Shown: in pieces, positions 234 through 57,286 of the stretch
How positions within the stretch are numbered: the stretch's first letter is position 1
Layout of the letters: every line of letters starts with the position of its first letter
Origin: Candidatus Heimdallarchaeota archaeon
GTDB taxonomy: Archaea > Asgardarchaeota > Heimdallarchaeia > Heimdallarchaeales > Heimdallarchaeaceae
Direction: 5' to 3'
Length of the DNA: 64,000 bases
Assembly: GCA_030603365.1 (NCBI GenBank)
Contig: JAUVXV010000006.1
Location: 32,001 to 96,000 of the forward strand
Translations under genes and position numbers: made by a program
The notes under the pieces: model-generated
The model's input: the letters and a program-made list of their open reading frames with translations, nothing else
Database searches by the model: none
Told to the model about the DNA's origin: nothing

Positions 234-1490
234 ATGTCAAGAATGAAAGCGATTCTAAAACGAGGAAAGAAGAAAGATAGAGATTATCCTAAGCAGGTTA
301 ATGGTTTCTTAGAATTTAATTATAGAGGAATCATTTCTGACAATAGAACAGAAGAAAATCCATTAATTGGTTGCGAGAGTTCTGATACACTTTATCTAGA
401 AGGAGAGTATAGAGAAACTCCAGTAAGTTTAATCCTAACTGGAAGTTATGGTGAAGCGATTTCTGAAAATTTAAACAAGAGATTCAGCAACTCCAATCCT
501 TCAGCAATTTATCTTGGTTTTAATACTGATTTTCAAAAATCTTCTGATCTTCCCAGTATTGTATTACCACCAGAAGATAGAGAAATAAACTCTTTTCTTC
601 AAGGAAAGAACTGGTACCAAAAGAACGAAGAGAGAATCAAATCTTATGTAAAAAAAGCTATTAGGAATACTTCAATTGCATTCATTTTTTTAGACAATAA
701 TCCGTTCATACTTGGCTTAATGCAAAATGTCATTACTTACATCAAAGATATGAAGACTCAACCTGTTCTATTCTTGCATCTTCCTTCAGAAGTAGACAAA
801 ATAAACGAAGAATTCTCAATTCTAGCTTTTATCTATAATATATTGAAAAAAGAGACTTCTTTTAATGCACCAATCGTAATCGTAGATGAAAAATACGCAT
901 TGAAATTAAATTCGAACATATCTATAGAAGAAATGCGAAACATGATTATTCAAAGAGAAGCTAATTTAATAGCAGATTTACTTTTAGGAATCTCACAATC
1001 ATCAAATTTCTATCATACAGATCAAAGCAATTTTGACAGAATTTTTAGAGAATCTAATGGAATTTGTCAGCTATTTAGTTTGGATATTTATGATAATAAT
1101 CCAGATCTATCATACCTGTTTAAACGTCATAAAAAAGCTTGTAGTTTTTTAAGCACTGAAAAACCTACTCGGGGATACGTAATTATACAATCTGGAAATG
1201 AAGGTTTAAAAACTGAAATCTACCAGAATATTAGAGAATTTTATGGAAATTCAGATGTGATACTTTCAATATTAAGTAAGAGGGCTAATGGTGCAATTAT
1301 TAGAGGTGTTTATAGTTTTATTTCTACTCCTAGAAATCTTTTAGATAGATATTCAAAATTTGACAAAGTGTCAGTTTTGTTATATGACATTGAAGATCAA
1401 GTTAAAGCAGTAACAAAAGAAAAATTGTATGAAGAGGTTCTAAATGCTAAAAGATTTGAGCTAAAATTATTAGAAGAAGTGAAAAAATAA
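234..1490 (+). CDS. Degenerate tubulin/FtsZ-superfamily protein, probably GTPase-dead paralogue of 7597..8736
   Basis: Colinear motif remnants LILTGSYGEAI (T1), LGFNTD (T2), HLPSEVD (T5), PIVIVDEK (T6), HTDQSNF (T7), GICQLFSLD and IIRGV match the 7597 ORF. The GGGxG signature is replaced by LDNNPFILG. Confidence 0.6.
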   Translation: MSRMKAILKRGKKKDRDYPKQVNGFLEFNYRGIISDNRTEENPLIGCESSDTLYLEGEYRETPVSLILTGSYGEAISENLNKRFSNSNPSAIYLGFNTDFQKSSDLPSIVLPPEDREINSFLQGKNWYQKNEERIKSYVKKAIRNTSIAFIFLDNNPFILGLMQNVITYIKDMKTQPVLFLHLPSEVDKINEEFSILAFIYNILKKETSFNAPIVIVDEKYALKLNSNISIEEMRNMIIQREANLIADLLLGISQSSNFYHTDQSNFDRIFRESNGICQLFSLDIYDNNPDLSYLFKRHKKACSFLSTEKPTRGYVIIQSGNEGLKTEIYQNIREFYGNSDVILSILSKRANGAIIRGVYSFISTPRNLLDRYSKFDKVSVLLYDIEDQVKAVTKEKLYEEVLNAKRFELKLLEEVKK

Positions 1491-1657: not shown

Positions 1658-4600
1658 ATGGATAAAAGACTTCGAGTTTTAATAGGTACTTTAATCTTAG
1701 TTGTTACAATTGGCTCAGCTGTAGTGATTGGAATCATCCTTCCTAGAACTTCAATATCTCTGATGAATGAAATCAACTCGAGATTAAATGAATATGGCCG
1801 ATTAAACGACAATGATTTCATTCCACAAGGTGGAATCGAAACCCCATCAGATTGGATGTATACCAACATCTCTGATGTAGATTCAAGATTTTATGATCAA
1901 GCTCATATCGAATTTTTCAATGTAAGTGACCGTGAAGGATATTTAGATTATAATACGCCTATAGCTTATTACTTCGTTCAAGGAGAGCTTGTTTTTGATA
2001 TTACTATAAACAAAACAGTAAAAGCTTACAATATTGAAGATGATTATGTTGTTTATGCTCAAAGAAAACAATACACGTTTAATGAGACTGCATCGTCTTT
2101 AAGTCCTAATGCAACTGTTTTGAATTTTAATTATATGTGGCCTTACTATATAGCTAATTTTGGAAATGGATCAGAGTACGGATTTCAAGCATATATGGCT
2201 GCTTATCTGATTGAATCAGAACTTGAATTAATCAAAGATATTAAAGGATGGACAGATTCTGAAGTAGCTTATGCTACACTAAATAGAGGATATGCTGAAG
2301 CAAATGGAATTGTTGATTTAGGGATATATCTTCCTCATAATTGGATTAGTGTTCGTCCAGCTTATCAAAATCTAGATTTTGACCAAGCAACAAGTTACAA
2401 AATATTCTTCAATGCTACATATAATGGACATGACTATTCTCTGATAACAGGAGAATATGGTTCCCAAAAATATTTCCTTGATATAGTACGAGGATTGTAT
2501 TATGACTCCGGAGATATTACTATAGACCCAGTTCAACTTTTAGCAGACATTTATGGCATAGATACAGCTGCAGAAAGATTATCTGCAATGTCTTTAGCAG
2601 CATATTTGGATTATCTATCAAATCAACCATCATTAGATTGGTTATACGACAATAAAATATCATATGTATGCTCTAGAACTGCAATGGAATGGGTAATGGG
2701 TATTGAGGATCCACTCTTAGGTGAAACATTCCCTCTACTTAAGAATGAAACCATTTCAAGCGACAGTATTAATTGGGATACCGATCTTTATTATGCAGAA
2801 AAATTGGGTACAAATAATATTAAAGACATAAATCAAATCATCGGAATAGCTAACATTCCTTATTACCATTATGCAGAATCAAGTGATGTCACTGTTAGAG
2901 GGAATTATTCATATGTTCAAGAAGGCAATGATATAAAAATTGTTAGAAATGATCATCCTCTATTTATGGCAATAGGTCAATTTGGCGATTATGATGGGGT
3001 CATAGAAGCTTTTGATGTTAATGGAGATCTCATATACGTTGCAGAAGGAACAAACGGATTAGAGATAATTGATGCTTTCAATAAAAGGTATATGGAGAAG
3101 TATTTTCAATGGAGTAATTTTGGTATTGATGATATCCGAGATTTAGAAATTCTTTACTTTGATGAGAACGGTGCTAATGCAACCATGGTTTTTGCAAATG
3201 GTGAGTATGGAACTGTAGTTCTTGTAGAAATTGATGCTGCTACAGGTTTACCAACAGATAATTTCTGGTCAGAAACTGCTGATGGGTCAGTTTATGCAAT
3301 TGATGTAGTAAATGACACATCTTATGCAGCTTATGCAGCCTTGGGACCTGATGGAATTAATACTTTCACAATCGATGCAACAGGATCAGACATTATTACA
3401 CTTGTAAATCACTACACCTCTTTAGACTTTCCTGAACTTACTAATGTCTTAGATGTAAAAGCTGAAGGTTTTTACCTATATGTTCTAGATGAAGTAGAAG
3501 GATTGTTGATATTCCAACTTAGTGCAGCTGGAGTAATCAATTCTCTTGTAGGACAATACACATTCCTTCCAACTGATTCTCATTATACTAACTTCCACCT
3601 AGATATTGATAATGACTTAATTTATCTAACTCAAGGAGAAGATGGTCTAGTAGTAGTTGATATTTCCTCTAAGTCAAGTCCATCAGAAGCATATCGCTTT
3701 ACAGGTGTTGATCATAAGGGAACAGCTTTAGGTGTATATGTAAATGGAACTGATGTTTATCTAGCAGATTTCGAAGAAGGTTTAGTTCATTTACAAATAC
3801 AAGAAGGAACAGGAACCATTGAAGTAATTGCAAAAGACGAACTTCATTCATTTATAGAGAGCTGGCAAAGAAACAGTAGAACTCAATTAGGAGGCTGGGA
3901 TCTTGGTCCAACAGCTGAAATTGAAGGTATAAAATTCAATAGAACATATGCCTCATATTCAACATATCCAAATATTGACAAAGGTTTAAGACTTCAATGG
4001 TCAGATCTTTTCTTAAGACCATTCTCTTACACATCTGAAACAGATACAGCACTTTTCTTTGATGAAATAGTCTATTACTATAAAGCAGAATATCAAATTC
4101 CATATCGTCAGATGGAAGAATTTGATCTATATTGGATGCATGATGCAAACTTTATCAACTCAAGTTACATCTATGTTGGACGATGGGGTCTAGAAACTGG
4201 ATTAGATTTAGATCCTGATGACTTTTTCATAACACATTCGTTGCCAGGACAACCAAGAGATCCTTTCCACATGCATGAAATGTTTGTTGAACCAGTAACT
4301 GGAAGTGTAGTTGAAAGAAGAGATAGAATTCAATACAATAGTATAGCAAGAAAATATATTGAGTTTTATGATTATCTTGATCCATTCAAATTCGGATTAA
4401 ATGAAGAATTCTTTGATCCTGAAGCTGATTTAGAACCTTATCAATTCTATAAAACATGGCATACAACATTTCCAGGATTAGAAGGAGGTATGGGAACAAT
4501 CTTCTGGCAAGAAGATGTCCATCATGCAACTGAAGTATTCTATGATGATATCAAAGAACTGTTCCTTAACAGAATTAAAGGAGCAGATGCTTCCAGAACA

Positions 4601-4690
4601 GGTGGAGCATTTGGTGCTATGTTTTTAGTTACTGTTGGATTTGTTGTAACTTCAGTAGTTCTACAAAGAACAAAACCAAAAGAAGATTAG
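1658..4690 (+). CDS. CD36/SR-BI/LIMP-2-like two-TM membrane protein with inserted LVIVD beta-propeller
   Basis: N- and C-terminal TM helices. Ordered CD36-like motifs FFNVSD, KQYTFNETAS, RTAMEWVMGIEDPLL, GTNNIKDINQI, FVEPVTG..RIQYN, IFWQE. LVIVD repeats (YVAEGTNGLEIID, YLTQGEDGLVVVDIS, YLADFEEGL) lie in the middle. Confidence 0.7.
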   Translation: MDKRLRVLIGTLILVVTIGSAVVIGIILPRTSISLMNEINSRLNEYGRLNDNDFIPQGGIETPSDWMYTNISDVDSRFYDQAHIEFFNVSDREGYLDYNTPIAYYFVQGELVFDITINKTVKAYNIEDDYVVYAQRKQYTFNETASSLSPNATVLNFNYMWPYYIANFGNGSEYGFQAYMAAYLIESELELIKDIKGWTDSEVAYATLNRGYAEANGIVDLGIYLPHNWISVRPAYQNLDFDQATSYKIFFNATYNGHDYSLITGEYGSQKYFLDIVRGLYYDSGDITIDPVQLLADIYGIDTAAERLSAMSLAAYLDYLSNQPSLDWLYDNKISYVCSRTAMEWVMGIEDPLLGETFPLLKNETISSDSINWDTDLYYAEKLGTNNIKDINQIIGIANIPYYHYAESSDVTVRGNYSYVQEGNDIKIVRNDHPLFMAIGQFGDYDGVIEAFDVNGDLIYVAEGTNGLEIIDAFNKRYMEKYFQWSNFGIDDIRDLEILYFDENGANATMVFANGEYGTVVLVEIDAATGLPTDNFWSETADGSVYAIDVVNDTSYAAYAALGPDGINTFTIDATGSDIITLVNHYTSLDFPELTNVLDVKAEGFYLYVLDEVEGLLIFQLSAAGVINSLVGQYTFLPTDSHYTNFHLDIDNDLIYLTQGEDGLVVVDISSKSSPSEAYRFTGVDHKGTALGVYVNGTDVYLADFEEGLVHLQIQEGTGTIEVIAKDELHSFIESWQRNSRTQLGGWDLGPTAEIEGIKFNRTYASYSTYPNIDKGLRLQWSDLFLRPFSYTSETDTALFFDEIVYYYKAEYQIPYRQMEEFDLYWMHDANFINSSYIYVGRWGLETGLDLDPDDFFITHSLPGQPRDPFHMHEMFVEPVTGSVVERRDRIQYNSIARKYIEFYDYLDPFKFGLNEEFFDPEADLEPYQFYKTWHTTFPGLEGGMGTIFWQEDVHHATEVFYDDIKELFLNRIKGADASRTGGAFGAMFLVTVGFVVTSVVLQRTKPKED

Positions 4691-6239: not shown

Positions 6240-7595
6240 ATGGAATCAACTTCTCCAAAATCAATTTCAGTAAAAGCAAAAATTGTTGAACCTGAAGTTG
6301 TCGAATTACCTAAGTATGAATTCGAAGATATGATAAACGAGCATTACAAAAGATTTCCAAGAACTGCTGAAATGGTTGAAAAACCACGGTTTGTGCGTGC
6401 ATTAAAAGAACCTTTTAGAAGATTTTATCTCCTACCTGTTGCACTATTTGGATTAAAATTAAACACAATTCTATCCTTACGATGGAAAAATTATATGAAA
6501 CTGTGGATTTATATTTCAATTCTATTTATACCGACTATTATTTTCACTATAATACCACTCGAATCAGCATTTGAGGGTTTTTCTAATCTAAGATGGATAA
6601 CAGATATCTTGTTTAATGTAGGTACGCCAATACTGATAGCAATATTACTCTCATTATTCTATTTGAAATATACACATGATGGATTTCTAGGATTAGTTCA
6701 AGCTAAAAGAGTAGAATTTATAGAAAAACCTGTAAGGGAATATTATGCAAAATACTATGACAAACCTTTACCAAGAAATCCTTTAATCATTCTGGCATCT
6801 CTTGCTACTGGTATTGGAGTTCAAATCCCAATTCTTCAAATCTCTATCACAGCAGGGTATCCAGTAGCAACTGCGTTTGGAATTCTTGCATGTATTTTTA
6901 ATCCATTCCTCTTCTATATCTTCTTTTTAGCTTCTTACTACATGATTTTGAATACAAGAATCTATGCTAAAACCTTGAAACCATTCAAAGAAAGGATGAA
7001 CGTTTATCTTAAAGAATATGGAACTCTTCTAAGAAAAGACAATTATGATATGATTTGGTCACTTGGTGATAAATGGTCTAAGGGAAGATCTATAAGTCAG
7101 CTTGAAAACATACCTACAGCTGGTATCGTATCAACACTGATTATTATCATTGCAATGGGAATGGGAAATGCAAATGAGTTAATTTACGGAATTAATAATG
7201 GGATGCCAACCCACGGTATAAATTTCTTGTTCCTTAATTCCGATCAACTAATGACAGTCCTTGTTGTAACCATCTCAGCTTTAGTTGCAGCTTTAATGGT
7301 TTTCATAATCTTTATTCCCCTAATAGCTTTTAATGGAAAAGCTAAAAAATTCAAAATTAAAGCTCTGATGGAACTTGATAACTATATCTTTGCTAGTGTA
7401 GTAGAATTTGGAGAGAAGTATTCTGAAGTGGCCAAACAAGAGAGCGTTCAGATGTTACAACTTCGTGAATATATAGCTTCAATGAGAACTTTTCCAATAT
7501 CAACTCAAAAGATATTCAGAACAATTATGGCAATAGCTCTTTGGGTTGTAAATATATTCAAAATTATCAAATCAGTGGGATCTGGAGTGGTTTAG
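6240..7595 (+). CDS. Polytopic membrane protein of unknown function, directly upstream of the tubulin-like gene
   Basis: 451-aa ORF with about 6-7 hydrophobic segments; 1-nt gap to the next ORF. Confidence 0.75.
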   Translation: MESTSPKSISVKAKIVEPEVVELPKYEFEDMINEHYKRFPRTAEMVEKPRFVRALKEPFRRFYLLPVALFGLKLNTILSLRWKNYMKLWIYISILFIPTIIFTIIPLESAFEGFSNLRWITDILFNVGTPILIAILLSLFYLKYTHDGFLGLVQAKRVEFIEKPVREYYAKYYDKPLPRNPLIILASLATGIGVQIPILQISITAGYPVATAFGILACIFNPFLFYIFFLASYYMILNTRIYAKTLKPFKERMNVYLKEYGTLLRKDNYDMIWSLGDKWSKGRSISQLENIPTAGIVSTLIIIIAMGMGNANELIYGINNGMPTHGINFLFLNSDQLMTVLVVTISALVAALMVFIIFIPLIAFNGKAKKFKIKALMELDNYIFASVVEFGEKYSEVAKQESVQMLQLREYIASMRTFPISTQKIFRTIMAIALWVVNIFKIIKSVGSGVV

Positions 7596-7596
7596 A

Positions 7597-8736
7597 ATGT
7601 CCTGGCTAAAGAAAAAACTGTTTAAGAAGAAAATTTCTATTGCTGTTATAGGAGTAGGAAATGCAGGATGCAGAATAGGTGATAAACTTGTTCACCATCT
7701 AAGAGAAAGTAGAATAACTGTCAAGTCATTAGCTATTAATCAGAGTGACAACTTTGATCCTAAGGTGAATAACTTCGCTGACCATTATTGGTTTGGTTCA
7801 AAAGACTCACCATCTTCAGATTATGAACTAGAAAGAGTTTTAGAACAATTAACTCAAAATGAACAACAATTACAGGATCATATTGAAAAGGTTCTTTTCT
7901 ATAAAAAACATGATAGAAGAGATGTGGAAGATTTAGCTCTGCATTTAATTGTTGGAAGTGGTGGAGGGGCTGGTAGTGCTGGTGCTATGAAGGTTAGTAA
8001 GATTATTGCTGAACAAACTGGAGTTCCCCCTACTGTTATTTTTGTTATCCCAGAGAAAAATGAACCATCACTAGTTCAATATAATTCAGCTAGAGCTCTT
8101 CACTATCTAGGATTTGATTATCAAGGTCCTAATTGTCCAATAATTCTTTTTGATAATGATAAATTATTGAACTTATTCAAAGAAGAAACTATTGAAATAG
8201 CCTTAGAAAAGAGCAATGAGTTCTTAGTAGATTCTTTAACAACAACAATACTAGCTGCACTCCAAGAAAGTACTCACGAAGAATTCAACGCAGATTTAAC
8301 TGATTTCTTTCAATCGTTCACAGAAGAAGCAAGGGGTCTAGGAGTAATTATTTCTTTAGACAAGGAATTTGAATCACTAGAAAAAGCACAGAGTATTAGG
8401 TTCTCAGATTTATTCTTTAACGAACTTGATGAGAGTTCAAGTCTCACAGCTGACATAACAAGAGCAAAACTTGGATTTCTAGCAATTACTTCCCCAACAA
8501 CTTATCAAGCTACATTTGAGACAAGAAAGATTGTTAAGAAATTCGAACGAGGAAATATTAAAGTATCTCTCAATTCTATTGATGAACCTATTTTAACTAT
8601 AAGAGGGGTAATTACAGGAATTCACCCAGATTATGTTGAAAGGTTCTGGGAAGTGCTAGAAAAAGGTAGAGATAGTCGTAAGAAGGTTGTAGAGACAGAA
8701 GAGAAACTGAAGCAAGCTTATATGAAACTTGAGTAA
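7597..8736 (+). CDS. Divergent tubulin/FtsZ/CetZ-superfamily GTPase
   Basis: IAVIGVGNAGCRIGD (T1), GSGGGAGSAG (T4 signature variant), VIPEKNE, ILFDND, FNADLTD (T7). Basic amphipathic N-terminus MSWLKKKLFKKK. Confidence 0.88.
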   Translation: MSWLKKKLFKKKISIAVIGVGNAGCRIGDKLVHHLRESRITVKSLAINQSDNFDPKVNNFADHYWFGSKDSPSSDYELERVLEQLTQNEQQLQDHIEKVLFYKKHDRRDVEDLALHLIVGSGGGAGSAGAMKVSKIIAEQTGVPPTVIFVIPEKNEPSLVQYNSARALHYLGFDYQGPNCPIILFDNDKLLNLFKEETIEIALEKSNEFLVDSLTTTILAALQESTHEEFNADLTDFFQSFTEEARGLGVIISLDKEFESLEKAQSIRFSDLFFNELDESSSLTADITRAKLGFLAITSPTTYQATFETRKIVKKFERGNIKVSLNSIDEPILTIRGVITGIHPDYVERFWEVLEKGRDSRKKVVETEEKLKQAYMKLE

Positions 8737-8773: not shown

Positions 8774-9775
8774 ATGCAAATCGATATAAAGATACAAACT
8801 TCTCTTATCTTGAATATAATGAGTGTTACCCGAGATTGCCCAAACTGCTTTCGGAAAATAAAAACATCATCAAAATTCTGCAAATTTTGTGGAACCACTC
8901 TCAAGATTTGTCTAGAATGTCAAACTATCAACAAAGCTAATGATGCTTTCTGTGCAGAATGTGGGTTCGATATTAAAGATGTAGAAGTAGCTGAGGGTTT
9001 TTCAGAGGTAACAGATTCTGTCGAAACTAGTTCAGAAGAGGATTTTACTCTTACAGAGGATGGAGTTGAAGAAGATCAAATAAAGCAAGAACGAAAATTA
9101 GTGATGTGGCCACCAATTTCACAATCAAGATATCTTTCGCAAGCTAGACCTCAACCAAAAGTAAAACCATATATGAAATATCTAGAGGAAGGACCTAGTT
9201 ATGAACCTAAAAAGCTAAGCTATACATATAACAGAGTAAGATTGCTAGGATTTCTCAGTGGACCTTTACCAACCTCTAATGTTTTAAGTTCAGTAGTAGA
9301 AGCTTTTGGAATTGCTTTAGCTCTAATAGCTGGTGGGATAGTGATTTTTTCCATAGGGATGGCATTCTTTCAATATATTATCTTTCCAATTATTGCAGGA
9401 ATAATAGGTGGAGCTTTATTATTATCGGCACCTTTCTTTGGTATCTATTACGTTAGTTCAAATTGGTTGTATAGAGCATTCAAAATTATGAGACCAGTAA
9501 AACTGAAAACTATTGTATGGAATTATACTCTAGCTTCTCTAATATTTTCATTGATAGGATTAATGTTTGCACCAATTTTATTAGAAGGAGGAGCTTTAGG
9601 AATTACTCTAGCAGTAGTTGGTGGGATAGTATACACAATGGGGTTAATAGTTGTACCTCTAAAAGCATATTTAGCAGATCTAGTATATGTTAAAGCTGCT
9701 GTAGACCTCAGGGATTCAGAACCAAAAGAAGAAAAAGTAGTCACTAAAGAAAACAAGAAAAATGGGGAGAAATAA
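8774..9775 (+). CDS. Double zinc-ribbon membrane protein
   Basis: CPNC, CKFCG, CLEC and CAECG pairs, an acidic linker and about 4 C-terminal TM helices. True start may be ATG at 8819. Confidence 0.8.
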   Translation: MQIDIKIQTSLILNIMSVTRDCPNCFRKIKTSSKFCKFCGTTLKICLECQTINKANDAFCAECGFDIKDVEVAEGFSEVTDSVETSSEEDFTLTEDGVEEDQIKQERKLVMWPPISQSRYLSQARPQPKVKPYMKYLEEGPSYEPKKLSYTYNRVRLLGFLSGPLPTSNVLSSVVEAFGIALALIAGGIVIFSIGMAFFQYIIFPIIAGIIGGALLLSAPFFGIYYVSSNWLYRAFKIMRPVKLKTIVWNYTLASLIFSLIGLMFAPILLEGGALGITLAVVGGIVYTMGLIVVPLKAYLADLVYVKAAVDLRDSEPKEEKVVTKENKKNGEK

Positions 9776-12084: not shown

Positions 12085-13344
12085 ATGATGAACACTGTTC
12101 CTCGAGCAGAAGTCATGGAAACTAACCATCATCAAGCTTTGAGTAGGCTGTGTCATCAAACCAAAAATCTCTACAATCGAGCGAATTATCTGTGCAAGCA
12201 ACAGAGACAAAAACAAGGGTCGATTTATTCTTATTATGAACTAGATAAACGACTTAAAACTGAAGAATGTTATAAGGTTCTCCCAGCCCATACTGCACAA
12301 CACACACTGAAATTACTTATAAGAAACTGGAAAGCGTTCTTCCAAGCAATAAAAGAATGGAAAAAGCATCCTGGAAGGTTTTTCGGTCCTCCTCGCCCAC
12401 CTCACTACAAACCGTCGGATGGGGAGACGATTGCTATCATCTCCAATCAACAAGCAAAAATACGCAACGGATACCTCATCTTACCTAAGAAACTCCCCTT
12501 CACGATCAAAACAAGATTAAAAGCAACTGACAAGCTTCGAGAAGTACGGATCATCCCTCGTGGCGTAGGCTATACTGTAGAGATCATTTATAACAAACAT
12601 TTACCCAAACAAGTGCAGGAAAACAAGAAGAGAAAAGGTGCGCTAGATTTGGGTTTAACCAACCTCATTACCTTTGTGGATAATATCGGCTCACGCCCGA
12701 TTATTGTCAAGGACGAGGGGAAGGGAATAAAGTCAATAACTCAATATTATCTGAAGAAAACCAGTCTATTACAAGAGCAGTATGCACAACAGCAAAGAGT
12801 AAATCTTAAACAGAAAAACAACCTCAGATATGGTCCTGCTTATTATCAAGCTAAGGAACGGTGGAGAAGAAAAGTCAAAGATTGTTTCCATCACCTCAGT
12901 CGATTCTTAATAGAGTTGTGGGAACAACGGGGGTTACACACCATCTACATTGGCTACAATCCTCGCTGGAAACAGCAAGTAAGGTTGAGGAAGAAAACCA
13001 CTCAACTGTTCGTTCTCGTCCCATTTCACAAACTAATCACTCTTCTCAAATACAAAACTGAGGAGAAGGGGATAACGATTGAACTAGTCGATGAGAGTTA
13101 TACCTCCAAATGTAGTTTCTTAGATGATGAGTCTATTCAGAAACATACCAAGTATGCAGGAAAAAGGATTCAAAGAGGACTGTTTAAATCTAGTCAAGGT
13201 CATCTCATTAATGCTGATGTCAATGCAGCGTATAATATACTGATTAAAAGCGATCCGCAAGCACTTCCACCACGAAGTGTGGGCGGGGTAGGAGGATATG
13301 TGATTTATCCACTTAGAATGAGCTATCCAGCAATGAAGTTCTAG
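12085..13344 (+). CDS. tnpB: TnpB RNA-guided endonuclease, rearranged-RuvC type
   Basis: KNLYNRANY; GALDLGLTNL (RuvC-I); IYIGYN with G at the canonical E position; VDESYTSKCS (alternative E); NADVNAAYNI (RuvC-III). Confidence 0.93.
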   Translation: MMNTVPRAEVMETNHHQALSRLCHQTKNLYNRANYLCKQQRQKQGSIYSYYELDKRLKTEECYKVLPAHTAQHTLKLLIRNWKAFFQAIKEWKKHPGRFFGPPRPPHYKPSDGETIAIISNQQAKIRNGYLILPKKLPFTIKTRLKATDKLREVRIIPRGVGYTVEIIYNKHLPKQVQENKKRKGALDLGLTNLITFVDNIGSRPIIVKDEGKGIKSITQYYLKKTSLLQEQYAQQQRVNLKQKNNLRYGPAYYQAKERWRRKVKDCFHHLSRFLIELWEQRGLHTIYIGYNPRWKQQVRLRKKTTQLFVLVPFHKLITLLKYKTEEKGITIELVDESYTSKCSFLDDESIQKHTKYAGKRIQRGLFKSSQGHLINADVNAAYNILIKSDPQALPPRSVGGVGGYVIYPLRMSYPAMKF

Positions 13345-19326: not shown

Positions 19327-21276
19327 TTAAATGGGTCCCCTCACGTGCGTTGAGGGGAAAAGATCGTTAGGGAGGAGAGTACCAGGAAGGGAAGCGATAT
19401 TAAAGGCAGCATTATCGTGAGTATTTACCTTCTGTCCACACTTCTTACAAGGAGAAAGATCATACTGCCCAGGACCACGAACTAAGAATCCTCCACAGCC
19501 ATGGTGAAGAGAACTGGTATACTGAGGGTTAACAACTTCCAACTGCACATCATACCCTAATTCTAAAGATGCTAACCAAACAGCTTTCTTGTAGATAAGC
19601 AAACTGTCAGGCATGGTGTAGATAGCTTTGGCTAGAGCACCTTTCGTTCCTGTAGCATCAGCTGTTAACTGCTCAATTTTAAGGGTCTGACACTTTTTCT
19701 TCACCAGTACTGCTGCAAGGAAGTGAGGGAGAAGAAGGGTAATCTCGCGAAGGATACGACTACGACGAGTATAAACACGGTTGAGCTCGCCTTGAAGCTT
19801 ACAACAACTATGACTGTCATACTCTTTTCTTTTGCGTAACAGTCCTCGATTGAGTTCAGGAAGAACTTTATTGGAAAGGTGAGTGTAGCGCGAAGCTAAC
19901 TTAAGTAAATCTAATGAAAGAGGGATAGAAGTGTTGAAAGCTAGCATATACTTCCCTAATCGATTAATGTCTACTCCCAACACCTTTTTCTTTCTCCCAG
20001 ATATCTGGGGGAGATAGTGATGAAGAAGTTTGAAGGAGTGGAAACAGTCATGCGTTCCTTCGAGGACGACATCTACGCGAGGTTTGAAACTAGGTGCTGA
20101 TCCACTACTTATTTGGAAAACTTTAATCACAGCTCCATTATGTAAATATTCTAGCACTTTTGGGGGAAAGAGTACTTGAGCAGTTGACAGTTTCTTACTT
20201 TGTTGTGGAAAACCAAGGATAGTGGTTCCTTGCTTCTTGATTTGCTTAGTTAGTTCACTTGCATTCCCTTGTCGGGTGATAACATAATCTTTTTTCATTA
20301 ACAATTTTATTGGTAATCTTCCTTTCTTTTTTCGTTTAAATGGTGGGGGAACAACTTGCTCCACTGGGAGAGTCTTGACTAACTGAGGGACACTCTGCAT
20401 ATAATGGTCAAAGAGTGTGAAAACAACTATCAGTCTTACAGCTGAAAAGAGTTTTCGGGTAGGCTTCCCTAAAACTTGAGCGAGTTGTTGGGAGAGATTC
20501 TTGAGGCTTTTCCACCGAGAAGGTTGAGGACTGTTAATCCAGGAAGTAAGGAAGGGAACAACAATCTTTTCTTCTTGTTTTATCAATTGAAGTTTATTTA
20601 GAAATGCTTGCTTGTTCTTTGTAAGTTGTGAGGGATTAGAGAATTCGTGAGTATAGTAAAACAGCGCATCATCAATTGCTTGGAGAATATCTTGTTGAGT
20701 ACAAGACGGGAGAATGTTGTTCAGCTGAATGGTTGCAGAAGAATAGATGGTGGTTTTCTTCTTCCTCCAGTAGGAATCAGCTTGAGTTCTGGAGTGAGTG
20801 AGAAGATTGATGACATACCTTCGTTTCAACTTCCAATAGTTTTCCAGACTTCGTTCAGTGTAGGGAGAACGACCAAAAATCACCCACTCTACAAGTTGTT
20901 GAGGATTTTTCAACAGAAAGTTGAGTAATCCTTGCACTTTCTGCTCTTTGTCAATCTTCCCTTTGACGGCTATGTAGAGCCAGTGGAAAGCACTTTCTAC
21001 TATATTCGGGTTCATCCCTACTACTTTACCTAGTTTGCGAGTGAAGAACCTTTCTTTTGGGTTGGTTCGGTAGAGGTCTACAGCCTTTTTTACAACTTGA
21101 GGAGTAAGAAGGGTGGTTTGTCTTTCCTCTAATTTTCTTATTCTTCGATTGATTTCTTCTCGCTGGGATTGGTCATCACATTTTAACACTACTTGATAAG
21201 TTCTCATCACCTTCGTTAAACTAGGTGGAGGATGAGCTTGTGTTTGTTGTGCCGTTTGTGTGCCCAAGTCTCTCAT
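19327..21276 (-). CDS. tnpB: Unusually large (649 aa) TnpB-like RuvC nuclease
   Basis: VLGVDIN (RuvC-I), LKIEQL (RuvC-II), VNPQYTS, HxxC/CxxC zinc finger, NTHDNAAFNIA (RuvC-III variant). Confidence 0.85.
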   Translation of the reverse strand: MRDLGTQTAQQTQAHPPPSLTKVMRTYQVVLKCDDQSQREEINRRIRKLEERQTTLLTPQVVKKAVDLYRTNPKERFFTRKLGKVVGMNPNIVESAFHWLYIAVKGKIDKEQKVQGLLNFLLKNPQQLVEWVIFGRSPYTERSLENYWKLKRRYVINLLTHSRTQADSYWRKKKTTIYSSATIQLNNILPSCTQQDILQAIDDALFYYTHEFSNPSQLTKNKQAFLNKLQLIKQEEKIVVPFLTSWINSPQPSRWKSLKNLSQQLAQVLGKPTRKLFSAVRLIVVFTLFDHYMQSVPQLVKTLPVEQVVPPPFKRKKKGRLPIKLLMKKDYVITRQGNASELTKQIKKQGTTILGFPQQSKKLSTAQVLFPPKVLEYLHNGAVIKVFQISSGSAPSFKPRVDVVLEGTHDCFHSFKLLHHYLPQISGRKKKVLGVDINRLGKYMLAFNTSIPLSLDLLKLASRYTHLSNKVLPELNRGLLRKRKEYDSHSCCKLQGELNRVYTRRSRILREITLLLPHFLAAVLVKKKCQTLKIEQLTADATGTKGALAKAIYTMPDSLLIYKKAVWLASLELGYDVQLEVVNPQYTSSLHHGCGGFLVRGPGQYDLSPCKKCGQKVNTHDNAAFNIASLPGTLLPNDLFPSTHVRGPI

Positions 21277-34399: not shown

Positions 34400-35959
34400 T
34401 TATATGTTTTTCATTCGTTTCTTAGTTAATAGAGAGAGAGGAACTACTGCAACACCAAATAAAGAGAGTATGAATATTATCAGAATACCAGTTGAAAACT
34501 CTGAAATTGTGATAGGTCCTTGGGGATAGGGATCATTGTTATTTGCATCACCATCAAGAGGATAGGGTGATATACCAGTCCAATCTGACCACCAATTACC
34601 TTCCAGAGTTATAGTATCGAACCAGATATTGTTTGTCCCATCATCGTAACCTTGCGAATCTCCTCCTAAATTGTTATCAGTAAATTTGTTGTGATGCAAA
34701 ACATTGTCGTAGGAGTCAAAATTTAGATAAATTCCATACAGAAAACTATATTGTATATCATTGTAAGCAAGAAGACAAGAAGCAGAAGATTCAAGATAGA
34801 TACAAAAATAATTGCTACTGAGACAAGTATTATTTGTAACTATATTTCCTGAGCATGACCAAATATAGATGGCCGACAGTACATTCTCGATGTATGTGTT
34901 ATTGTAAACTATACAATCATGAGAAATAAATAGTCTCAATCCAGACTCAAAGTTGAAATTGCAAGTATTGTTCACAAAAGTAGATTCATAATCATACATT
35001 GTTTTGATTGCATCTTCGTTATTGTTACAAGTATTATTCACAATAATACTATAAGTAGAAGATTCAAGATAGATACCACATTGATTATAGCTACAAGTAT
35101 TATTCATGATATCAGCATAATCACAGTCATAAAGAAGCATACCTATCGCTGTATCTGACAAGTTTTGGTTGTATATTGTGGGTCTCTTACAGTTAACTAA
35201 AATGAGCTGACCATAGTCTGGATCTGTAAGGGTAAGGTCATCAATTCCCTTGTAATATCCTAATATCTTCCCATTTACCCAGTTATTCTCAAAACTAAAG
35301 TTAAGATAATTTGTTATACTAATATCATAGAAATAGACACCATCATTATAAAATACATTATTCGTTAATGTAGAGTTGTTGGAATGCCATAACTCAATCC
35401 CGTAATCACCATTGTCGGAAAGTGTATTATTTATAATAACAGCACCAGGAGAGTAAAATAACTCAATTCCATCCCAACCATTTTTTGTCATAGTACAATT
35501 AATAATTGAGACACTAGAAGAATATTCAAGGTATACGCCAATCAATCCAATTTCATTAAGTGTAGTATTGAGAATTGTAGCTGTTCCAGAGGCAATAGAT
35601 ACAAGATTGATACCAAAACCAGTTGCTTTAATGTAACAGTAACTAATAACGAAATGTTTGGTAGTATCTTTAATAAAAATTCCTTTGATTTCTGTTGTTG
35701 TAATGTTATAATCTGTAATGATATAAGGATCTTCAACTGTTCCTGCTCCATTAAACCCATAATCGGTAAAATTGTCATCAGAGATTATTTTGATAGGGGC
35801 ATGATCTACTAGAGCTTGAATCGAGGGTGAAGATTTTTCATTATCAATAAGAGATGAAGTTGTAATAGTTGAATTATTACTCGCAGAAAGAATGAGTAAC
35901 GAGGTCGTAATTAATATTAGTACAATTATTTTTGAAGGATTAATTTTTTTTGTCGTCAT
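34400..35959 (-). CDS. Surface protein with right-handed beta-helix (NosD/CASH) repeats
   Basis: GxGTxxDPY, repeated NNTC..N..GI.L, GNWWSD; ISEF + TM + KKR. Confidence 0.88.
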   Translation of the reverse strand: MTTKKINPSKIIVLILITTSLLILSASNNSTITTSSLIDNEKSSPSIQALVDHAPIKIISDDNFTDYGFNGAGTVEDPYIITDYNITTTEIKGIFIKDTTKHFVISYCYIKATGFGINLVSIASGTATILNTTLNEIGLIGVYLEYSSSVSIINCTMTKNGWDGIELFYSPGAVIINNTLSDNGDYGIELWHSNNSTLTNNVFYNDGVYFYDISITNYLNFSFENNWVNGKILGYYKGIDDLTLTDPDYGQLILVNCKRPTIYNQNLSDTAIGMLLYDCDYADIMNNTCSYNQCGIYLESSTYSIIVNNTCNNNEDAIKTMYDYESTFVNNTCNFNFESGLRLFISHDCIVYNNTYIENVLSAIYIWSCSGNIVTNNTCLSSNYFCIYLESSASCLLAYNDIQYSFLYGIYLNFDSYDNVLHHNKFTDNNLGGDSQGYDDGTNNIWFDTITLEGNWWSDWTGISPYPLDGDANNNDPYPQGPITISEFSTGILIIFILSLFGVAVVPLSLLTKKRMKNI

Positions 35960-39754: not shown

Positions 39755-41812
39755 TTGAATTGTAATCTCATGAGTTCTCCAAAAATGAAATACGCAACTC
39801 TATTTCTTTTAGTATTGATTAGTTTACAATTTGCTCCTGCAACCAATTCCTCAATTGCAGGAGATGATATTATAATTACTGAAGTACTTTACGATACTCC
39901 AGGAACTGATTCGGATGAAGAATGGTTTGAACTATTTAATCCCACAGATTCAACTGTCGATTTGACAGGATGGTCAGTTGATGATAATTACGCAAGTATT
40001 GGTTTAACAGGCACTATTCTAGCCAAAGGGTATTTTGTGGTTGCTAGTGATGCTGCAGCATTTAATACTCTATATGGTTATAGTCCTGATTTAAGTTTGG
40101 ATTGGGGAAGTTTTGCCTTAAGTAATTCAGGTGATATGCTCACTCTTAAAGATGATTTAAGTGCTGAAGTTGATTTTGTTGCATGGGAAAATGAAGTACC
40201 TGGTTGGTCCATTATTGCAGTTGATACAACTATCAGAAGAACGAATGTTGTTGACACTAATACAGTTGATGATTGGGAAAATAGTGGAACCATAGGTGAC
40301 CCCGGAGATGGTCCCTATGATGAAATGCTCCTAGATGTTATAGCTCCAATCGTTAACATAACAGCTCCTGTTAATGGTTCAACAGTATCAAGATTTGTAG
40401 ATATCAATGTTAATGCAACTGATGCAAACGGAATAGCTAGTTATGCTATATATGTTGATGGAGGATTAATTGCTACTACTAGTTCATATGTATGGGATTC
40501 TAGAAATGTGAATAATGGTTCTCATATAATATCTGCAATATGTAAAGATCCAGCAAATAATATTGGAGAACATAATATTACGGTAATAGTTGATAATGAA
40601 GACTTAATTTCAGACATAGATGCTATCAAAATCATGACCTACAACGTTGAAGAATCTGGTGCTAATCCAGACTGGAAGGAAGTAGTTAAGGAAGAAAATC
40701 CAGACATAGTTGTCTTTGTAGAAACTGGAGATTGGGATGATGGTTCAGATTTCTTACTTAACCAATATGTTGATGCATTTAATGCTTATTTTGTCGATGA
40801 AGAACCTTATGAAGGCTACACAGCTCAAGGTATTTCCTACAATACTGGAGGAGAAGCAATCATGAGCAGATTCCCAGTTTTAGAATCTGTCAGAATTCCT
40901 GAAGTACCTCTTGATAATGGTACAATGTATGATGTCACTCACGATTTCATGTTCTGGAATGTAAACATCTCTGGGACTGAAGTATATCTTATCGGTGTTC
41001 ATTTGAAAGCTATGGGCGGCATAGAAAACGAAGTAAGACGTGAGTATGAAACAGAAGGTATCATCAACTATATGGATGCGTTAGGGGAATACCCTATTCT
41101 GTACATGGGAGATTTGAACTCATTCTCACCTGAAGACACGGGTGCTTTAGCTCCAACAGGTGATCTAGGTTATGGACCATTGACTATGATGTTAGTTCCA
41201 GATGACCCAACCTATGGACAGTATTCATCGGAAGTACATAATTTTACAGATATCTATAGAACATTGAACCCAACTACTCCAGGGTTTACCTATCCATCCT
41301 ATGCTTCCAGAATCGATTTCATAATTGCCAATGATTACTTCGTAGATTACATGATTAACTCAACTGTTGGAGACACTGCAACAGCTAGTACAGGTTCTGA
41401 TCATTATTGTGTTGACTTCTTCTTGGATGCTTACTCTTTTGTGAATGAGCTAGACGTCAACCCACACGAAGTACAGGGATTGGATGCTGTTGCAATAAGT
41501 ACTACAGAGATTGATTTAACTTGGTATGCAAATATTGAGAGCGATTTGGACTATTATAGAGTCTTCAGAGACGGGGTGAACATAGCCAATACATCGAACA
41601 CTTACTATTCTGATAGTGGATTAACAGTAGGCACATGGTATGATTATGAGATAACAGCAGTTGATACAAGTGGTAAGGAAGGAGTACCTTCAAGCTCAGT
41701 ATCAATTAGGACACAGGATGTAGTACCAGAATTTCTAGTATTTGGAATAACAATACTATGTCTATTGGGAGTAAGTGCATTAGTTTCACTAATAATATTC
41801 AAAAGAAAGTAG
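39755..41812 (+). CDS. Surface-anchored nuclease/phosphatase: lamin-tail + Ig + EEP + FN3 + PEF tail
   Basis: IIITEVLYD..EEWFELFN (LTD), MTYNV, MGDLN, RIDFI, GSDH (EEP), FN3, VPEF + TM + KRK. Confidence 0.88.
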   Translation: MNCNLMSSPKMKYATLFLLVLISLQFAPATNSSIAGDDIIITEVLYDTPGTDSDEEWFELFNPTDSTVDLTGWSVDDNYASIGLTGTILAKGYFVVASDAAAFNTLYGYSPDLSLDWGSFALSNSGDMLTLKDDLSAEVDFVAWENEVPGWSIIAVDTTIRRTNVVDTNTVDDWENSGTIGDPGDGPYDEMLLDVIAPIVNITAPVNGSTVSRFVDINVNATDANGIASYAIYVDGGLIATTSSYVWDSRNVNNGSHIISAICKDPANNIGEHNITVIVDNEDLISDIDAIKIMTYNVEESGANPDWKEVVKEENPDIVVFVETGDWDDGSDFLLNQYVDAFNAYFVDEEPYEGYTAQGISYNTGGEAIMSRFPVLESVRIPEVPLDNGTMYDVTHDFMFWNVNISGTEVYLIGVHLKAMGGIENEVRREYETEGIINYMDALGEYPILYMGDLNSFSPEDTGALAPTGDLGYGPLTMMLVPDDPTYGQYSSEVHNFTDIYRTLNPTTPGFTYPSYASRIDFIIANDYFVDYMINSTVGDTATASTGSDHYCVDFFLDAYSFVNELDVNPHEVQGLDAVAISTTEIDLTWYANIESDLDYYRVFRDGVNIANTSNTYYSDSGLTVGTWYDYEITAVDTSGKEGVPSSSVSIRTQDVVPEFLVFGITILCLLGVSALVSLIIFKRK

Positions 41813-46204: not shown

Positions 46205-47296
46205 ATGAAGAAGCATGTATGTCTTTGTGTTTTGTTGATAATATTTGCAAATTACAATCTTATAGCTGTTTCCACTTATGCTAATAATCAAGAGGTGACG
46301 ATAACTAAAGTAGGAGAATTTGCAACCAATGCATTGTACTATCATATTGAAGTAATTGATGACATACTATACTTTACTGAATTTGATACAAAGAAATTTT
46401 GTTTGTTAGATGTACAAGATCCATCAAAACCCGTTTCATTAGCAAATTATTCTGTAACAGATGGACATGATTTCGAAATTAGGGGGGATATTGCTTATTT
46501 GAGTACATGGGAGTATGGGATAGAAATCACCGATATCTCGAATTCAACCAATCCAATAAAAATCAGTAATTACACAACAGGACCAATATCACATCTGAAT
46601 GTAATCGACAACTACATCTATGCAAGTCGTCACACTGAGAACAGATCTTATTATGAGATAATCGATGTAAGCAATCTTTTTGAACCTAAGTTAGTCAAAG
46701 AATTCTGTGAGGGACAGGGAGCTAAACCATTCATTGATAACAATTTAGCTCTCATATGTGTAAAGAATGTAACTTCGCTAGAGTGTTATTTTCGTTTATA
46801 CAATATTGAAGACCGTGAAAACCCTGAATTGGTTAGTGAGTATATTTCTAATGAAAATATATACTGCTATGACATCTTTTTAGAAAATGATTATGCCTAT
46901 TTTGCTTTAGCAGGTAAAGGGGTAATGATTATAGATTACAGTGACATCTATAACCCCATTTATGTGCACAGATTTGAAACTGGACATAATGTCTGGCGAT
47001 TGCATGTGGTTGAGGATATACTTTTCATAGCAAATGATGTTGCAGGAACAAAAATCATAGATGTTACAAGCAAAACCAATCCTATAGAACTAGCAAAATA
47101 TTATGATGGAGGATCAGCTTATAACTTGGATATGAAAGACAATCTCATCTTTGTTGCAGATGAGAATGATGCCATAGAAATTCTAGAAATTAAAGGATTA
47201 GAGATATTTGAAACATCATTTGTTTTATTGCATAGTTTGTTACTAATCCCTATTCTTATACTGCTTAAAAAAATACCAAAGAGTAAAAGGAAATAA
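46205..47296 (+). CDS. LVIVD-repeat beta-propeller surface protein
   Basis: Repeats such as GIEITDISNSTNP, GVMIIDYSDIYNP, GTKIIDVTSKTNP; C-terminal TM. Confidence 0.85.
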   Translation: MKKHVCLCVLLIIFANYNLIAVSTYANNQEVTITKVGEFATNALYYHIEVIDDILYFTEFDTKKFCLLDVQDPSKPVSLANYSVTDGHDFEIRGDIAYLSTWEYGIEITDISNSTNPIKISNYTTGPISHLNVIDNYIYASRHTENRSYYEIIDVSNLFEPKLVKEFCEGQGAKPFIDNNLALICVKNVTSLECYFRLYNIEDRENPELVSEYISNENIYCYDIFLENDYAYFALAGKGVMIIDYSDIYNPIYVHRFETGHNVWRLHVVEDILFIANDVAGTKIIDVTSKTNPIELAKYYDGGSAYNLDMKDNLIFVADENDAIEILEIKGLEIFETSFVLLHSLLLIPILILLKKIPKSKRK

Positions 47297-47368: not shown

Positions 47369-48943
47369 TCATACGTTCTTTAATCGTTTCTTAGTTATCA
47401 TAGAGAGAGGAACCAATGCTACAACAAACAAAGATAGTATGAATATGATCTGAATACCAGTTGATAACTCTGGAATTATTAAGGGTCCTGTGGGATAGGG
47501 GTCATTGTTATTAGCAGCACCATCAAGAGGATATGGAGGTATACCATTCCAATCTGACCACCAATTACCTTCTAACGTGATTGTATTAAACCAGATATTA
47601 TCTGTCCCATCGTCGTAACCTTGAGAAGTTCCTCCAAGATTGTTATCAGTTAAATAGTTGAGATACACCTCATTGTCAGAGGAGAAACCATTCAAGTAAA
47701 TTCCATAGTCTGCACAATTTTGAATAGTATTGTTCGTAATGAGACAAGAATCAGAAGATTGCAGATAGATACCCCAATGACTGCTAATGATACAAGTGTT
47801 ATTCATAATTGTGTTTCCAAAGCAACTCCATATATAGATGCTCAACCACACATTATTGTTGCAAGTATTATTGTTAACTATACAATTATCAGAAATAAAC
47901 AACCATAATCCATACCCACCATTATTATTACAGATATTGTTAGCAAATGTTGATCCTTGATCGTATACCGTCTCTAGTCCATCGTCAGAATTGTAACTAC
48001 AAGTATTGTTTACAACAGTACTGTAAGTGCAATCCTCAAGAATGATCCCATCAAAATTATTATTGCATGTATTATTCATGATCTCAGCATTGTCACACCA
48101 ATAAAGAAACATACCAGTTCTTGTATTTGATAGGTCTTGGTTGTATATAGTGGGTCTGTTACAGTAAATAAGGATGAGTTGACCATAATCAGGAGTTGTA
48201 AAGATAAGATCATCTGTATATGTATAATATCCTAAGATCTTCCCATTTACCCAGTTATTCTCAAAACTAAAGTTAAGGTAATTTGTTAGACTAATATCCT
48301 CGATATGAACACCACAATTGTAAAAAGCATTATTTGTAAGAGTAGAATTAGTGGAATGCCAAATAGTGATTCCACGACCACCACCATTATCACTAAGTGT
48401 GTTATTTATAATAATAGCACCGGGTGAGTAATATAAATTAATGCCATTAAAAGCATTGTTTGTCATTGTGCTATTTATGATTTTAACACTAGGAGAATAA
48501 TCTAGATATATGCCTTCCCAATTATTTTCATTAAGAGTAGTATTATAGATTGTAGCTGTTCCTGAAGTAACAGATTCAAAACTGATACCATATCCAACAG
48601 TTTCAATGTAACAATTACTGATAACAAAGTGTTTGGTTGTACCTTTTACGGATATACCATATGAGGTGGCTGTAATAATGTTGTAGCCAGTAATCATGTA
48701 AGGATCACTTCTTGTTCCAGTTCCAGAAAAACCATAGTCAGTAAAATTATTGTCAGATATTATTGTAAACGGAGCATGATCTAATAGAGCTTGAAATGAA
48801 GATGAAGATTCGTTGTGAACAACAGGAATTGCTAAGATAGAAGTTGAATTCTGATTAACTGAAAGAAAGAGTAGTGAGATAATAACTAGAAATACGATAC
48901 TTGTTTTTGAGAAATTATTTTTTTTATTCATTTTTAACCTCAA
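47369..48943 (-). CDS. Surface beta-helix (NosD/CASH) protein, paralogue of 34400
   Basis: Identical blocks NYLNFSFENNWVNGKILGYY and TITLEGNWWSDW; IPEL + TM + KKR. Confidence 0.88.
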   Translation of the reverse strand: MRLKMNKKNNFSKTSIVFLVIISLLFLSVNQNSTSILAIPVVHNESSSSFQALLDHAPFTIISDNNFTDYGFSGTGTRSDPYMITGYNIITATSYGISVKGTTKHFVISNCYIETVGYGISFESVTSGTATIYNTTLNENNWEGIYLDYSPSVKIINSTMTNNAFNGINLYYSPGAIIINNTLSDNGGGRGITIWHSTNSTLTNNAFYNCGVHIEDISLTNYLNFSFENNWVNGKILGYYTYTDDLIFTTPDYGQLILIYCNRPTIYNQDLSNTRTGMFLYWCDNAEIMNNTCNNNFDGIILEDCTYSTVVNNTCSYNSDDGLETVYDQGSTFANNICNNNGGYGLWLFISDNCIVNNNTCNNNVWLSIYIWSCFGNTIMNNTCIISSHWGIYLQSSDSCLITNNTIQNCADYGIYLNGFSSDNEVYLNYLTDNNLGGTSQGYDDGTDNIWFNTITLEGNWWSDWNGIPPYPLDGAANNNDPYPTGPLIIPELSTGIQIIFILSLFVVALVPLSMITKKRLKNV

Positions 48944-57200: not shown

Positions 57201-57286
57201 AGGAATTTCCAATTCCATCAGAACTACATCAAGCTCTTTCGCAACAGATTGTTGAATTAGCTAAAGTCCACTTTGTTGCTAGTTAA
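54212..57286 (+). CDS. hsdR: Type I R-M restriction subunit
   Basis: PDIVVFINGLPLIVIECK, HTQGSGKS, DEAHR, YTGTP, TGFDAP, QAIARVNR. Confidence 0.96.
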   Translation: MDLVKWNEKNESEEPALKLLEQLGYLRRLADELTNLSSEAERTSLRQVILLETLKQKMKDLNPWIDDTNIKNIIRDLTIVSTSSHTESNELIWQYFSKKDKLFVDQDFKDGKGRRKRGVTLIDWDNPENNDFTVTDQFKVNAPKGNRIPDIVVFINGLPLIVIECKSPIITNPLTQAIRQVREYQKTIPKLFHYNQIIIVTSGQSARYGVIGNSYEEYKSWKEPYPINISELEEIVKKTGRKNPSPTPQDITLYGLLEKRNLLDLIRNFIIYETRHGKKVKKIARYQQFRAVNKTVNRILTEKDVHQRGGTIWHTQGSGKSLTMLFTAIKLKREKSLMNPLLAFVTDRIDLVRQLRDTFDNCGFSNPQKAKNVDHLQELVKTGQGITIFTTIQKFHTRDADRRTGISRTGMVFPELNSDENIIVLVDEAHRSQYKYFAINLRKSMPNAAYIAYTGTPLAKNEKNERMTVGKGKTVRTFGSFIDIYDIRQSVEDEATVKILYESRLSDLRLEGETIDEIFERVFANLTVAEREKIKNKYANVDAILAAEERIKRITLDIVEHYTQHILPNDFKAQVVVNSRELAVRYKKYLERFNAPESVVIISANPRYDEELKKKYEVDFVTDKSKQDLMIDRFKDPEDSLKILVVCDMLITGFDAPIEQVMYLDKSLREHTLLQAIARVNRTYENKTHGLIVDYYGVSNNLEEALEIFDKPDIEGFMKDIKTELPKLEQYHRKAISHFEGFDLTDLNNCVLVLEPEDTRASFHHDCKKFAQTLDIVLPDPAGEKYLPDLKKLGEIVIAARNRFREESLDIVGFGGKVREIIDEHIRATKIIQLVEPVSILSDKFNEVLEALKDEKAVASEMEHAIKHQITIKVIEDPAFYTSLRKRLEEIIKEYKEHRISLAEKINKLKAIAQDIKARPDVAKFLGLNTAEMAFYNIFKRELEEIEISDSREIVRFTYETLESIEPLVSIVDWHLKSDILRQIRRACKQKFFELQEEFPIPSELHQALSQQIVELAKVHFVAS

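Follow-up and report, generated by a model that had tools for sequence, protein, structure and literature searches.

A divergent CD36/LIMP-2 homologue with an inserted LVIVD propeller in Heimdallarchaeaceae, and its putative role in lipid capture

The CD36 receptor family has been surveyed in eukaryotes only, where it is found in diverse lineages, and its origin has been placed at LECA (PMC10715195). Our literature search found no paper on archaeal CD36 proteins. An earlier note on a 64,000-nucleotide stretch of DNA from a Candidatus Heimdallarchaeota archaeon (contig JAUVXV010000006.1, positions 32,001 to 96,000; hereafter the window) described the product of one gene (Table 1) as a CD36-like protein with a propeller insert and a candidate eukaryotic signature protein. 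The locus raises the questions of whether this product is a true CD36 homologue, whether it is archaeal, and what it might do.

Homology to CD36 and LIMP-2 and domain architecture

In Pfam searches, the ORF matched LVIVD (E 1.9e-11) and, below the cut-off of 26.5 bits, CD36 (PF01130; 18.5 bits, E 7.7e-4). CD36 matches at E <=0.01 were obtained for 17/38 family members, the best at 9.6e-7. The motifs that the earlier note had quoted in CD36 order are all present in the ORF, in that order, and its reading of the protein as CD36-like was borne out by both of the comparisons suggested with it, namely by profile after removal of the LVIVD region and by structure. Once the propeller columns were removed, the family profile aligned end to end with canonical Asgard copies over 560 columns (P 97.7%, E 1.8e-12); the full profile gave P 93.5%, in the C-terminal part. 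These canonical copies are CD36 proteins of Lokiarchaeia, Hodarchaeales and Kariarchaeaceae, among them MCH8907703.1, automatically named "CD36 family protein" at NCBI. In a comparison with 39 short CD36 proteins of the eukaryote type, P was 98.7% (E 1.7e-16), while reversed and block-shuffled controls gave 1.4-9.6%; without the membrane and stalk helices, the match was still at P 97.3%. The unedited ORF was also the top match in its genome to the eukaryote-type CD36 HMM (E 7.9e-9; runner-up 0.15). A structure search ranked LIMP-2 first and CD36 second among 48,161 structures, LIMP-2 residues 37-240 being matched by the N-terminal part.

It is extremely improbable that the product is an LVIVD surface protein with a chance likeness to CD36 motifs: the Pfam CD36 score is below the cut-off, the Foldseek E for the structure match is only 0.01 and a sequence search of the PDB did not match LIMP-2, but three separate segments align in colinear order where the controls fail, and the two top-ranked structures are LIMP-2 and CD36. 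The product is a true, very divergent CD36/LIMP-2 homologue.

Table 1 Parts of the CD36-superfamily gene (nucleotide positions in the window; residue numbers of the product)
Feature	Position	Strand	Evidence
Whole gene, 1010 aa, CD36-superfamily two-TM surface protein with inserted LVIVD propeller	1658..4690	+	39 orthologues
TM1, residues 7-29	1676..1744	+	Hydropathy peak 2.6; continuous helix 3-47 in model
N-terminal stalk helix and N-terminal CD36 barrel strands, residues 30-158	1745..2131	+	Structure match to LIMP-2 37-240; profile alignment
Enlarged helical apex, residues 159-332, at site of ligand-binding helix bundle	2132..2653	+	Model helices 161-331
CD36 middle segment, residues 333-403, RT..EW..G..D motif and strand pair preceding the insertion	2654..2866	+	hhalign P 74.7% alone
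Seven-bladed LVIVD beta-propeller, residues 404-727	2867..3838	+	Pfam, model and structure match
C-terminal half of CD36 barrel, residues 728-980	3839..4597	+	hhalign P 91.8-93.5%; residue profile
TM2, residues 981-1003, GxxxG at 982-986; short charged tail after	4598..4666	+	Hydropathy, conservation

The protein has in common with human LIMP-2/SCARB2 (4f7b, 4q4b, 5uph), CD36 (5lgd) and the class B scavenger receptors of PF01130 two terminal TM helices, short tails and stalk helices. The two helices with very short tails around the ectodomain, noted earlier, are seen by both hydropathy and model, in keeping with the operational definition of SR-B proteins by a TM helix at either end of the ectodomain (PMC10715195); both tails are charged. 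A basic 6-residue cytoplasmic tail precedes TM1, which is probably an uncleaved signal anchor. Also shared with LIMP-2 and CD36 are the motif order, N-glycosylation, a helical apex, which here comes after the N-terminal strands and ahead of the RT..EW motif, and an asymmetric beta-barrel in which the first and last strands are paired, the N-terminal long strands here lying adjacent to the last strand. Unlike LIMP-2 and CD36, with which it shares ~20% identity, the archaeal protein has an inserted propeller, an apex of ~170 aa in place of a three-helix bundle, a single cysteine and altered tunnel positions, and it has lost the S-x-P-H-F motif. The lone Cys338 leaves it without the metazoan SR-B disulfide pairs, which are missing from non-metazoan SR-Bs too (PMC10715195).

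The first barrel strand (residues 80-89) carries the sequon N88, kept in 36/36 family members, and R340, E344, W345 and G348 of the middle segment are invariant. The C-terminal half, predicted to pair with the N-half, comprises a remodelled stretch (728-870), a conserved hairpin (871-896, with Arg887 and Asp889), the last strand (945-957, with Asp953 and His955) and the C-terminal stalk helix; model confidence is low in 732-872, with long stretches below 50. In the ectodomain there are 14 N-glycosylation sequons, of which 7 are kept in at least 60% of the family; the number expected by shuffling is 6.8, and only 0.25% of shuffles attain 14. This excess and conservation suggest that the ectodomain faces outward. 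The protein has neither a signalling tail nor an energy module. By part, mean identity is 71% in TM2, the most conserved, 65% in the apex and 43% in the propeller, which is among the least conserved parts; the barrel strands, better conserved than the propeller, span 60-71% together with the apex and TM2. This pattern points to strong selection on the CD36 scaffold whatever the role of the protein.

The propeller (324 aa) is inserted at the point equivalent to LIMP-2 residue ~240 or CD36 residue ~238. Its LVIVD (PF08309) score is above the cut-off, and four-stranded blades close a propeller. Such blades are common to the LVIVD-repeat surface proteins of archaea and bacteria, but here the propeller is embedded within another domain. 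As far as we searched, a whole propeller domain within the CD36 ectodomain at a non-apex site is a new architecture for the family: no report of an inserted propeller in protist SR-Bs was found, nor any propeller-less intermediate among the homologues searched. Related repeats occur in ten other proteins of the same genome, which are a plausible source pool for the insert, and blades 5-7 share 30-40% identity with other Heimdallarchaeia proteins. A second, stand-alone LVIVD protein is encoded in the window at 46205-47296 (+).

The apex is a known expansion site in SR-B proteins (PMC10715195). Long-apex SR-Bs of amoebozoans, jakobids and CRuMs (Dictyostelium Lmp type) have a helical expansion at the alpha4-alpha5 apex and no disulfides, as here (PMC10715195), and canonical Asgard copies have a long apex at the same site as the propeller form. 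Profile comparison of the apex of the propeller-bearing protein with other long apices gave nothing significant (P <=1.5%; 1.5% for the protist apex). The canonical Heimdallarchaeia apex (L043-L047 and relatives) matched that of protist SR-Bs (P 99.9%, E 2e-34, 172 columns, the compared segments including a short conserved apex-end motif), and the Loki apex did so more weakly (E 8e-9). The homology between the canonical Heimdallarchaeia and protist apices speaks against the view that the apex expanded wholly independently in eukaryotes.

Distribution, gene neighbourhood and origin

The contig that carries the window is 174 kb long and gene-dense, and the genome measures 3.65 Mb. The CD36-like gene is intron-free, with a GC of 0.339 against 0.333 for the genome and a GC3 of 0.19, at the low end of the genome range. 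The search gave 39 full or partial orthologues (40-74% identity), and all five genera of the family Heimdallarchaeaceae have orthologues. Close homologues are named Ca. Heimdallarchaeaceae or Heimdallarchaeota, including AB_125 of the same genus, and one partial copy is from a Thorarchaeota-labelled bin. The N-half profile matched 28/31 family genomes, with one copy each, and 0/52 other genomes of the class; in two further genomes the C-terminal part was found at a contig edge, which brings the count to 30/31. NCBI names the subfamily members only "LVIVD repeat-containing" or "hypothetical". Two members of 975-976 aa (P0206 and P0207) are annotated only as LVIVD proteins or unnamed.

The neighbourhood is conserved over 25 loci and consists of two tubulin/FtsZ-like genes, one of them degenerate, genes for pyruvate kinase, a membrane protein and a zinc-ribbon membrane protein, and a giant Top6B-like gene. 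In ~20 loci, which are most of those long enough to show it, the degenerate tubulin/FtsZ-like gene is directly upstream; 167 bases separate it from the CD36-like gene. These neighbours are absent from canonical Asgard loci.

In the window, the gene at 234-1490 (+) encodes a 418-aa protein with no Pfam match and without the glycine-rich GTP-binding signature, a degenerate paralogue (profile P 95.8%, 297 columns) of the Tubulin/FtsZ-family GTPase encoded at 7597-8736 (+; Pfam E 1.9e-10, GGGAGSAG loop). The block also holds a 451-aa membrane protein (6240-7595, unassigned) and a double-zinc-ribbon membrane protein (8774-9775). The Top6B-like gene, recognised by eye from its N-terminus, starts on the minus strand ~75 bases before window position 1, and its open frame of 4202 codons compares with ~2150-2280 aa in relatives; there it directly follows the CD36-like gene, and the two-gene unit is inverted here and in L063-L065. 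Elsewhere in the window are an IS605 TnpB-like gene (12085-13344, +; 419 aa), a 649-aa protein of unusual length whose C-terminus weakly matches a TnpB-type zinc finger (19327-21276, -), two right-handed beta-helix proteins (34400-35959 and 47369-48943, both -) and a protein combining a lamin-tail domain, an Ig domain and an exo/endo/phosphatase nuclease (39755-41812, +), probably a surface nuclease. A Type I restriction enzyme R subunit is encoded at 54212-57286 (+), and the ORFs upstream from 49809 are presumably its M and S subunits.

The earlier note had named eukaryotic contamination or a recent eukaryote-to-archaeon transfer as grounds on which its reading would fall. This was ruled out by the conserved synteny, the presence in five genera, the GC match, the intron-free gene on a gene-dense contig and the ~20% identity to eukaryotic copies. 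In the best tree, the family sits on a stem of 1.67 changes per site and is joined to three other Heimdallarchaeia rows at 98/97. An AU test did not reject a position on the eukaryote side (p 0.29) and the deep branches are unresolved, which leaves contamination or recent transfer with a very small probability. It should be noted that the exclusion covers recent transfer; an ancient transfer to archaea is possible. Without the three Heimdallarchaeia rows and P0073, the backbone of the tree collapses. Loki and Heimdall copies are largely separate in the tree, where only some of the "eukaryote" rows were confirmed by name, the rest being assigned by clade.

A PF01130 search of 400 Asgard genomes gave 28 above the cut-off, a patchy distribution. 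Canonical copies were found in three other families of the same order and in one more Heimdallarchaeia family, as well as in 20/135 genomes of one family, including Lokiarchaeota-labelled proteins. Their Pfam CD36 matches range from E 1e-51 to 1e-98, a PDB search with one of them matched LIMP-2 and CD36 at E 1e-20, and the seven that were scanned showed no LVIVD match. Over 220 core columns, the Heimdallarchaeaceae family shares 23% identity with canonical Heimdallarchaeia copies, 22% with those of Loki and ~20% with those of eukaryotes, against 30-32% between canonical Asgard and eukaryotic copies. Heimdallarchaeaceae have the propeller form and no canonical copy, and their sister families have canonical copies and no propeller form; this mutually exclusive distribution suggests orthology. 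The Heimdallarchaeaceae copy is a derived offshoot, not the ancestral form.

Tunnel-lining residues and possible roles

LIMP-2 numbering was anchored on the alignment of one canonical Asgard copy and checked against the residue names in PMC9096817. By profile alignment (posterior ~0.81 for each), LIMP-2 A379 (SR-BI C384) corresponds to Arg887 and V415 (SR-BI G420) to His955. These two positions line the cholesterol site and matter for SR-BI uptake (PMC5712522, PMC4148835). The first is Arg/Lys in 92% of the family, as against Ala/Gly in 96% of canonical Asgard copies, and the second is His/Tyr/Thr in 76%, as against Gly/Ala/Ser in all canonical Asgard copies. LIMP-2 K381 is replaced by Asp889 (97%) and E413 by Asp953. 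The S-x-P-H-F motif had no counterpart in the family by profile alignment, the posterior in the motif region being only ~0.2, whereas canonical Asgard copies keep S-K-P-H along with the small tunnel residues. As read from these alignments, the lumen, which in CD36/SR-B lipid transporters is a continuous and mostly hydrophobic tunnel, appears to be rebuilt relative to canonical members.

The reading that we prefer, at a probability of roughly 45%, is that this CD36/SR-B member captures lipid particles with its propeller and apex and passes polar lipids to the membrane through the altered tunnel. In an ancestor of Heimdallarchaeaceae, a CD36/SR-B gene would have evolved fast, gained an LVIVD propeller of the kind found in host surface proteins and become fixed as a single copy. 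The propeller and apex of the outward-facing glycoprotein would dock extracellular lipid-bearing particles, such as membrane vesicles, cell debris or lipid-protein aggregates. Single amphipathic molecules would then enter the barrel and, by facilitated diffusion of the sort seen in CD36, SR-BI and LIMP-2, reach the outer leaflet of the membrane. With Arg887, Asp889, Asp953 and His955 replacing Ala/Gly, Lys, Glu and Gly/Ala, a sterol-like neutral lipid would be a less likely cargo than a polar or charged one (fatty acid, lyso- or phospholipid). Of the roles proposed in the earlier note, lipid scavenging is plausible as a putative role, and prey or partner recognition is conjectural. Several observations count against lipid transfer: the bulky residues at cholesterol-site positions that are small in nearly all canonical Asgard copies, the loss of S-x-P-H-F, the low model confidence in the remodelled stretch, the lack of any lipid-metabolism gene as a conserved neighbour across the loci examined and, for docking, the lack of a known ligand for any LVIVD propeller in the literature searched.

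The same tunnel changes would also fit an adhesin or tether, in which the barrel is a stalk with its lumen plugged by an Arg887-Asp889-Asp953 salt-bridge network, and the propeller and apex bind glycans or proteins on partner cells, on particles or on the cell's own envelope. The acquired propeller is typical of cell-surface proteins (PMC2447325), the apex is strongly conserved, and in CD36 proteins it is the apex to which protein partners bind (PMC5712522). However, conservation is higher in the barrel strands than in the propeller, and canonical tunnels also contain an ionic network (E93, R95, K97, D252, K381 and E413; PMC4912623), so the charge swap need not close the lumen. In SNMP1, a single bulky substitution in a wide part of the tunnel had no effect (PMC4912623). 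We consider a plugged tunnel possible, although on the unlikely side.

Single-copy presence in 30/31 family genomes, as against the patchy canonical copies, would suit an envelope-building lipid shuttle resembling mycobacterial PgfA/LmcA. Such a protein would carry lipids or glycolipids of the cell itself to the outside, or from one membrane site to another, in growth zones positioned by the two tubulin/FtsZ-like proteins whose genes are close by. The conservation of TM2 suggests a membrane partner, the degenerate tubulin/FtsZ-like gene is directly upstream in most informative loci, and PgfA is an essential factor in lipid trafficking and in polar growth (10.1101/633768). Yet the block includes pyruvate kinase and the Top6B-like gene and so may reflect plain ancestry, the upstream gene is 167 bases away, canonical Asgard loci do not share these neighbours, and cytoplasmic tails as short as these offer no evident link to the cytoskeleton. 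We regard such a shuttle as quite unlikely.

Implications for the CD36 family and for Asgard archaea

Diverse protist CD36-family matches were seen in our searches, and an atlas search with the N-half returned a PF01130 cluster of 88 members, all archaeal (TM 0.44), most commonly Thermoplasmatota, the phylum being known for only 8/88. Actinobacterial LmcA/PgfA (MSMEG_0317, Rv0227c; DUF3068/PorA, PF11271) share the barrel fold (PMC8972800) and have neither the apex bundle nor a propeller. PF11271 had no match in the host genome, while the positive control matched in Corynebacterium glutamicum. The all-archaeal cluster and the actinobacterial fold indicate that the family extends beyond Asgard archaea and eukaryotes.

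The interpretation in the earlier note was upheld only in part. Homology to CD36/LIMP-2 in an Asgard archaeon stands; against the label of eukaryotic signature protein are the archaeal cluster, the actinobacterial barrel and the greater distance of this copy from eukaryotes than that of canonical Asgard copies, and in the strict sense, which demands absence from non-Asgard prokaryotes, it does not apply. The CD36 receptor family is not eukaryote-only: members are now shown in Lokiarchaeia and several Heimdallarchaeia lineages. For the Heimdallarchaeaceae copy, the role of lipid receptor is putative, the copy is derived and the family is wider than Asgard archaea.

The tunnel positions concerned are known from SR-BI, and their natural substitutions here provide a test of the tunnel model. 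Research on eukaryogenesis still asks by what means Asgard archaea take up lipids or engage partners, and this is a concrete surface protein to test. A bolder view, which we consider doubtful, is that the archaeal ancestor of eukaryotes already had CD36-type lipid receptors, with the long apex common to canonical Heimdallarchaeia copies and protists, and that in Heimdallarchaeaceae they became a fixed, possibly essential, propeller-bearing device taking lipids from neighbour cells or vesicles. If true, this would give archaea a route to foreign (bacterial-type) lipids and would bear on the proto-eukaryotic membrane change.
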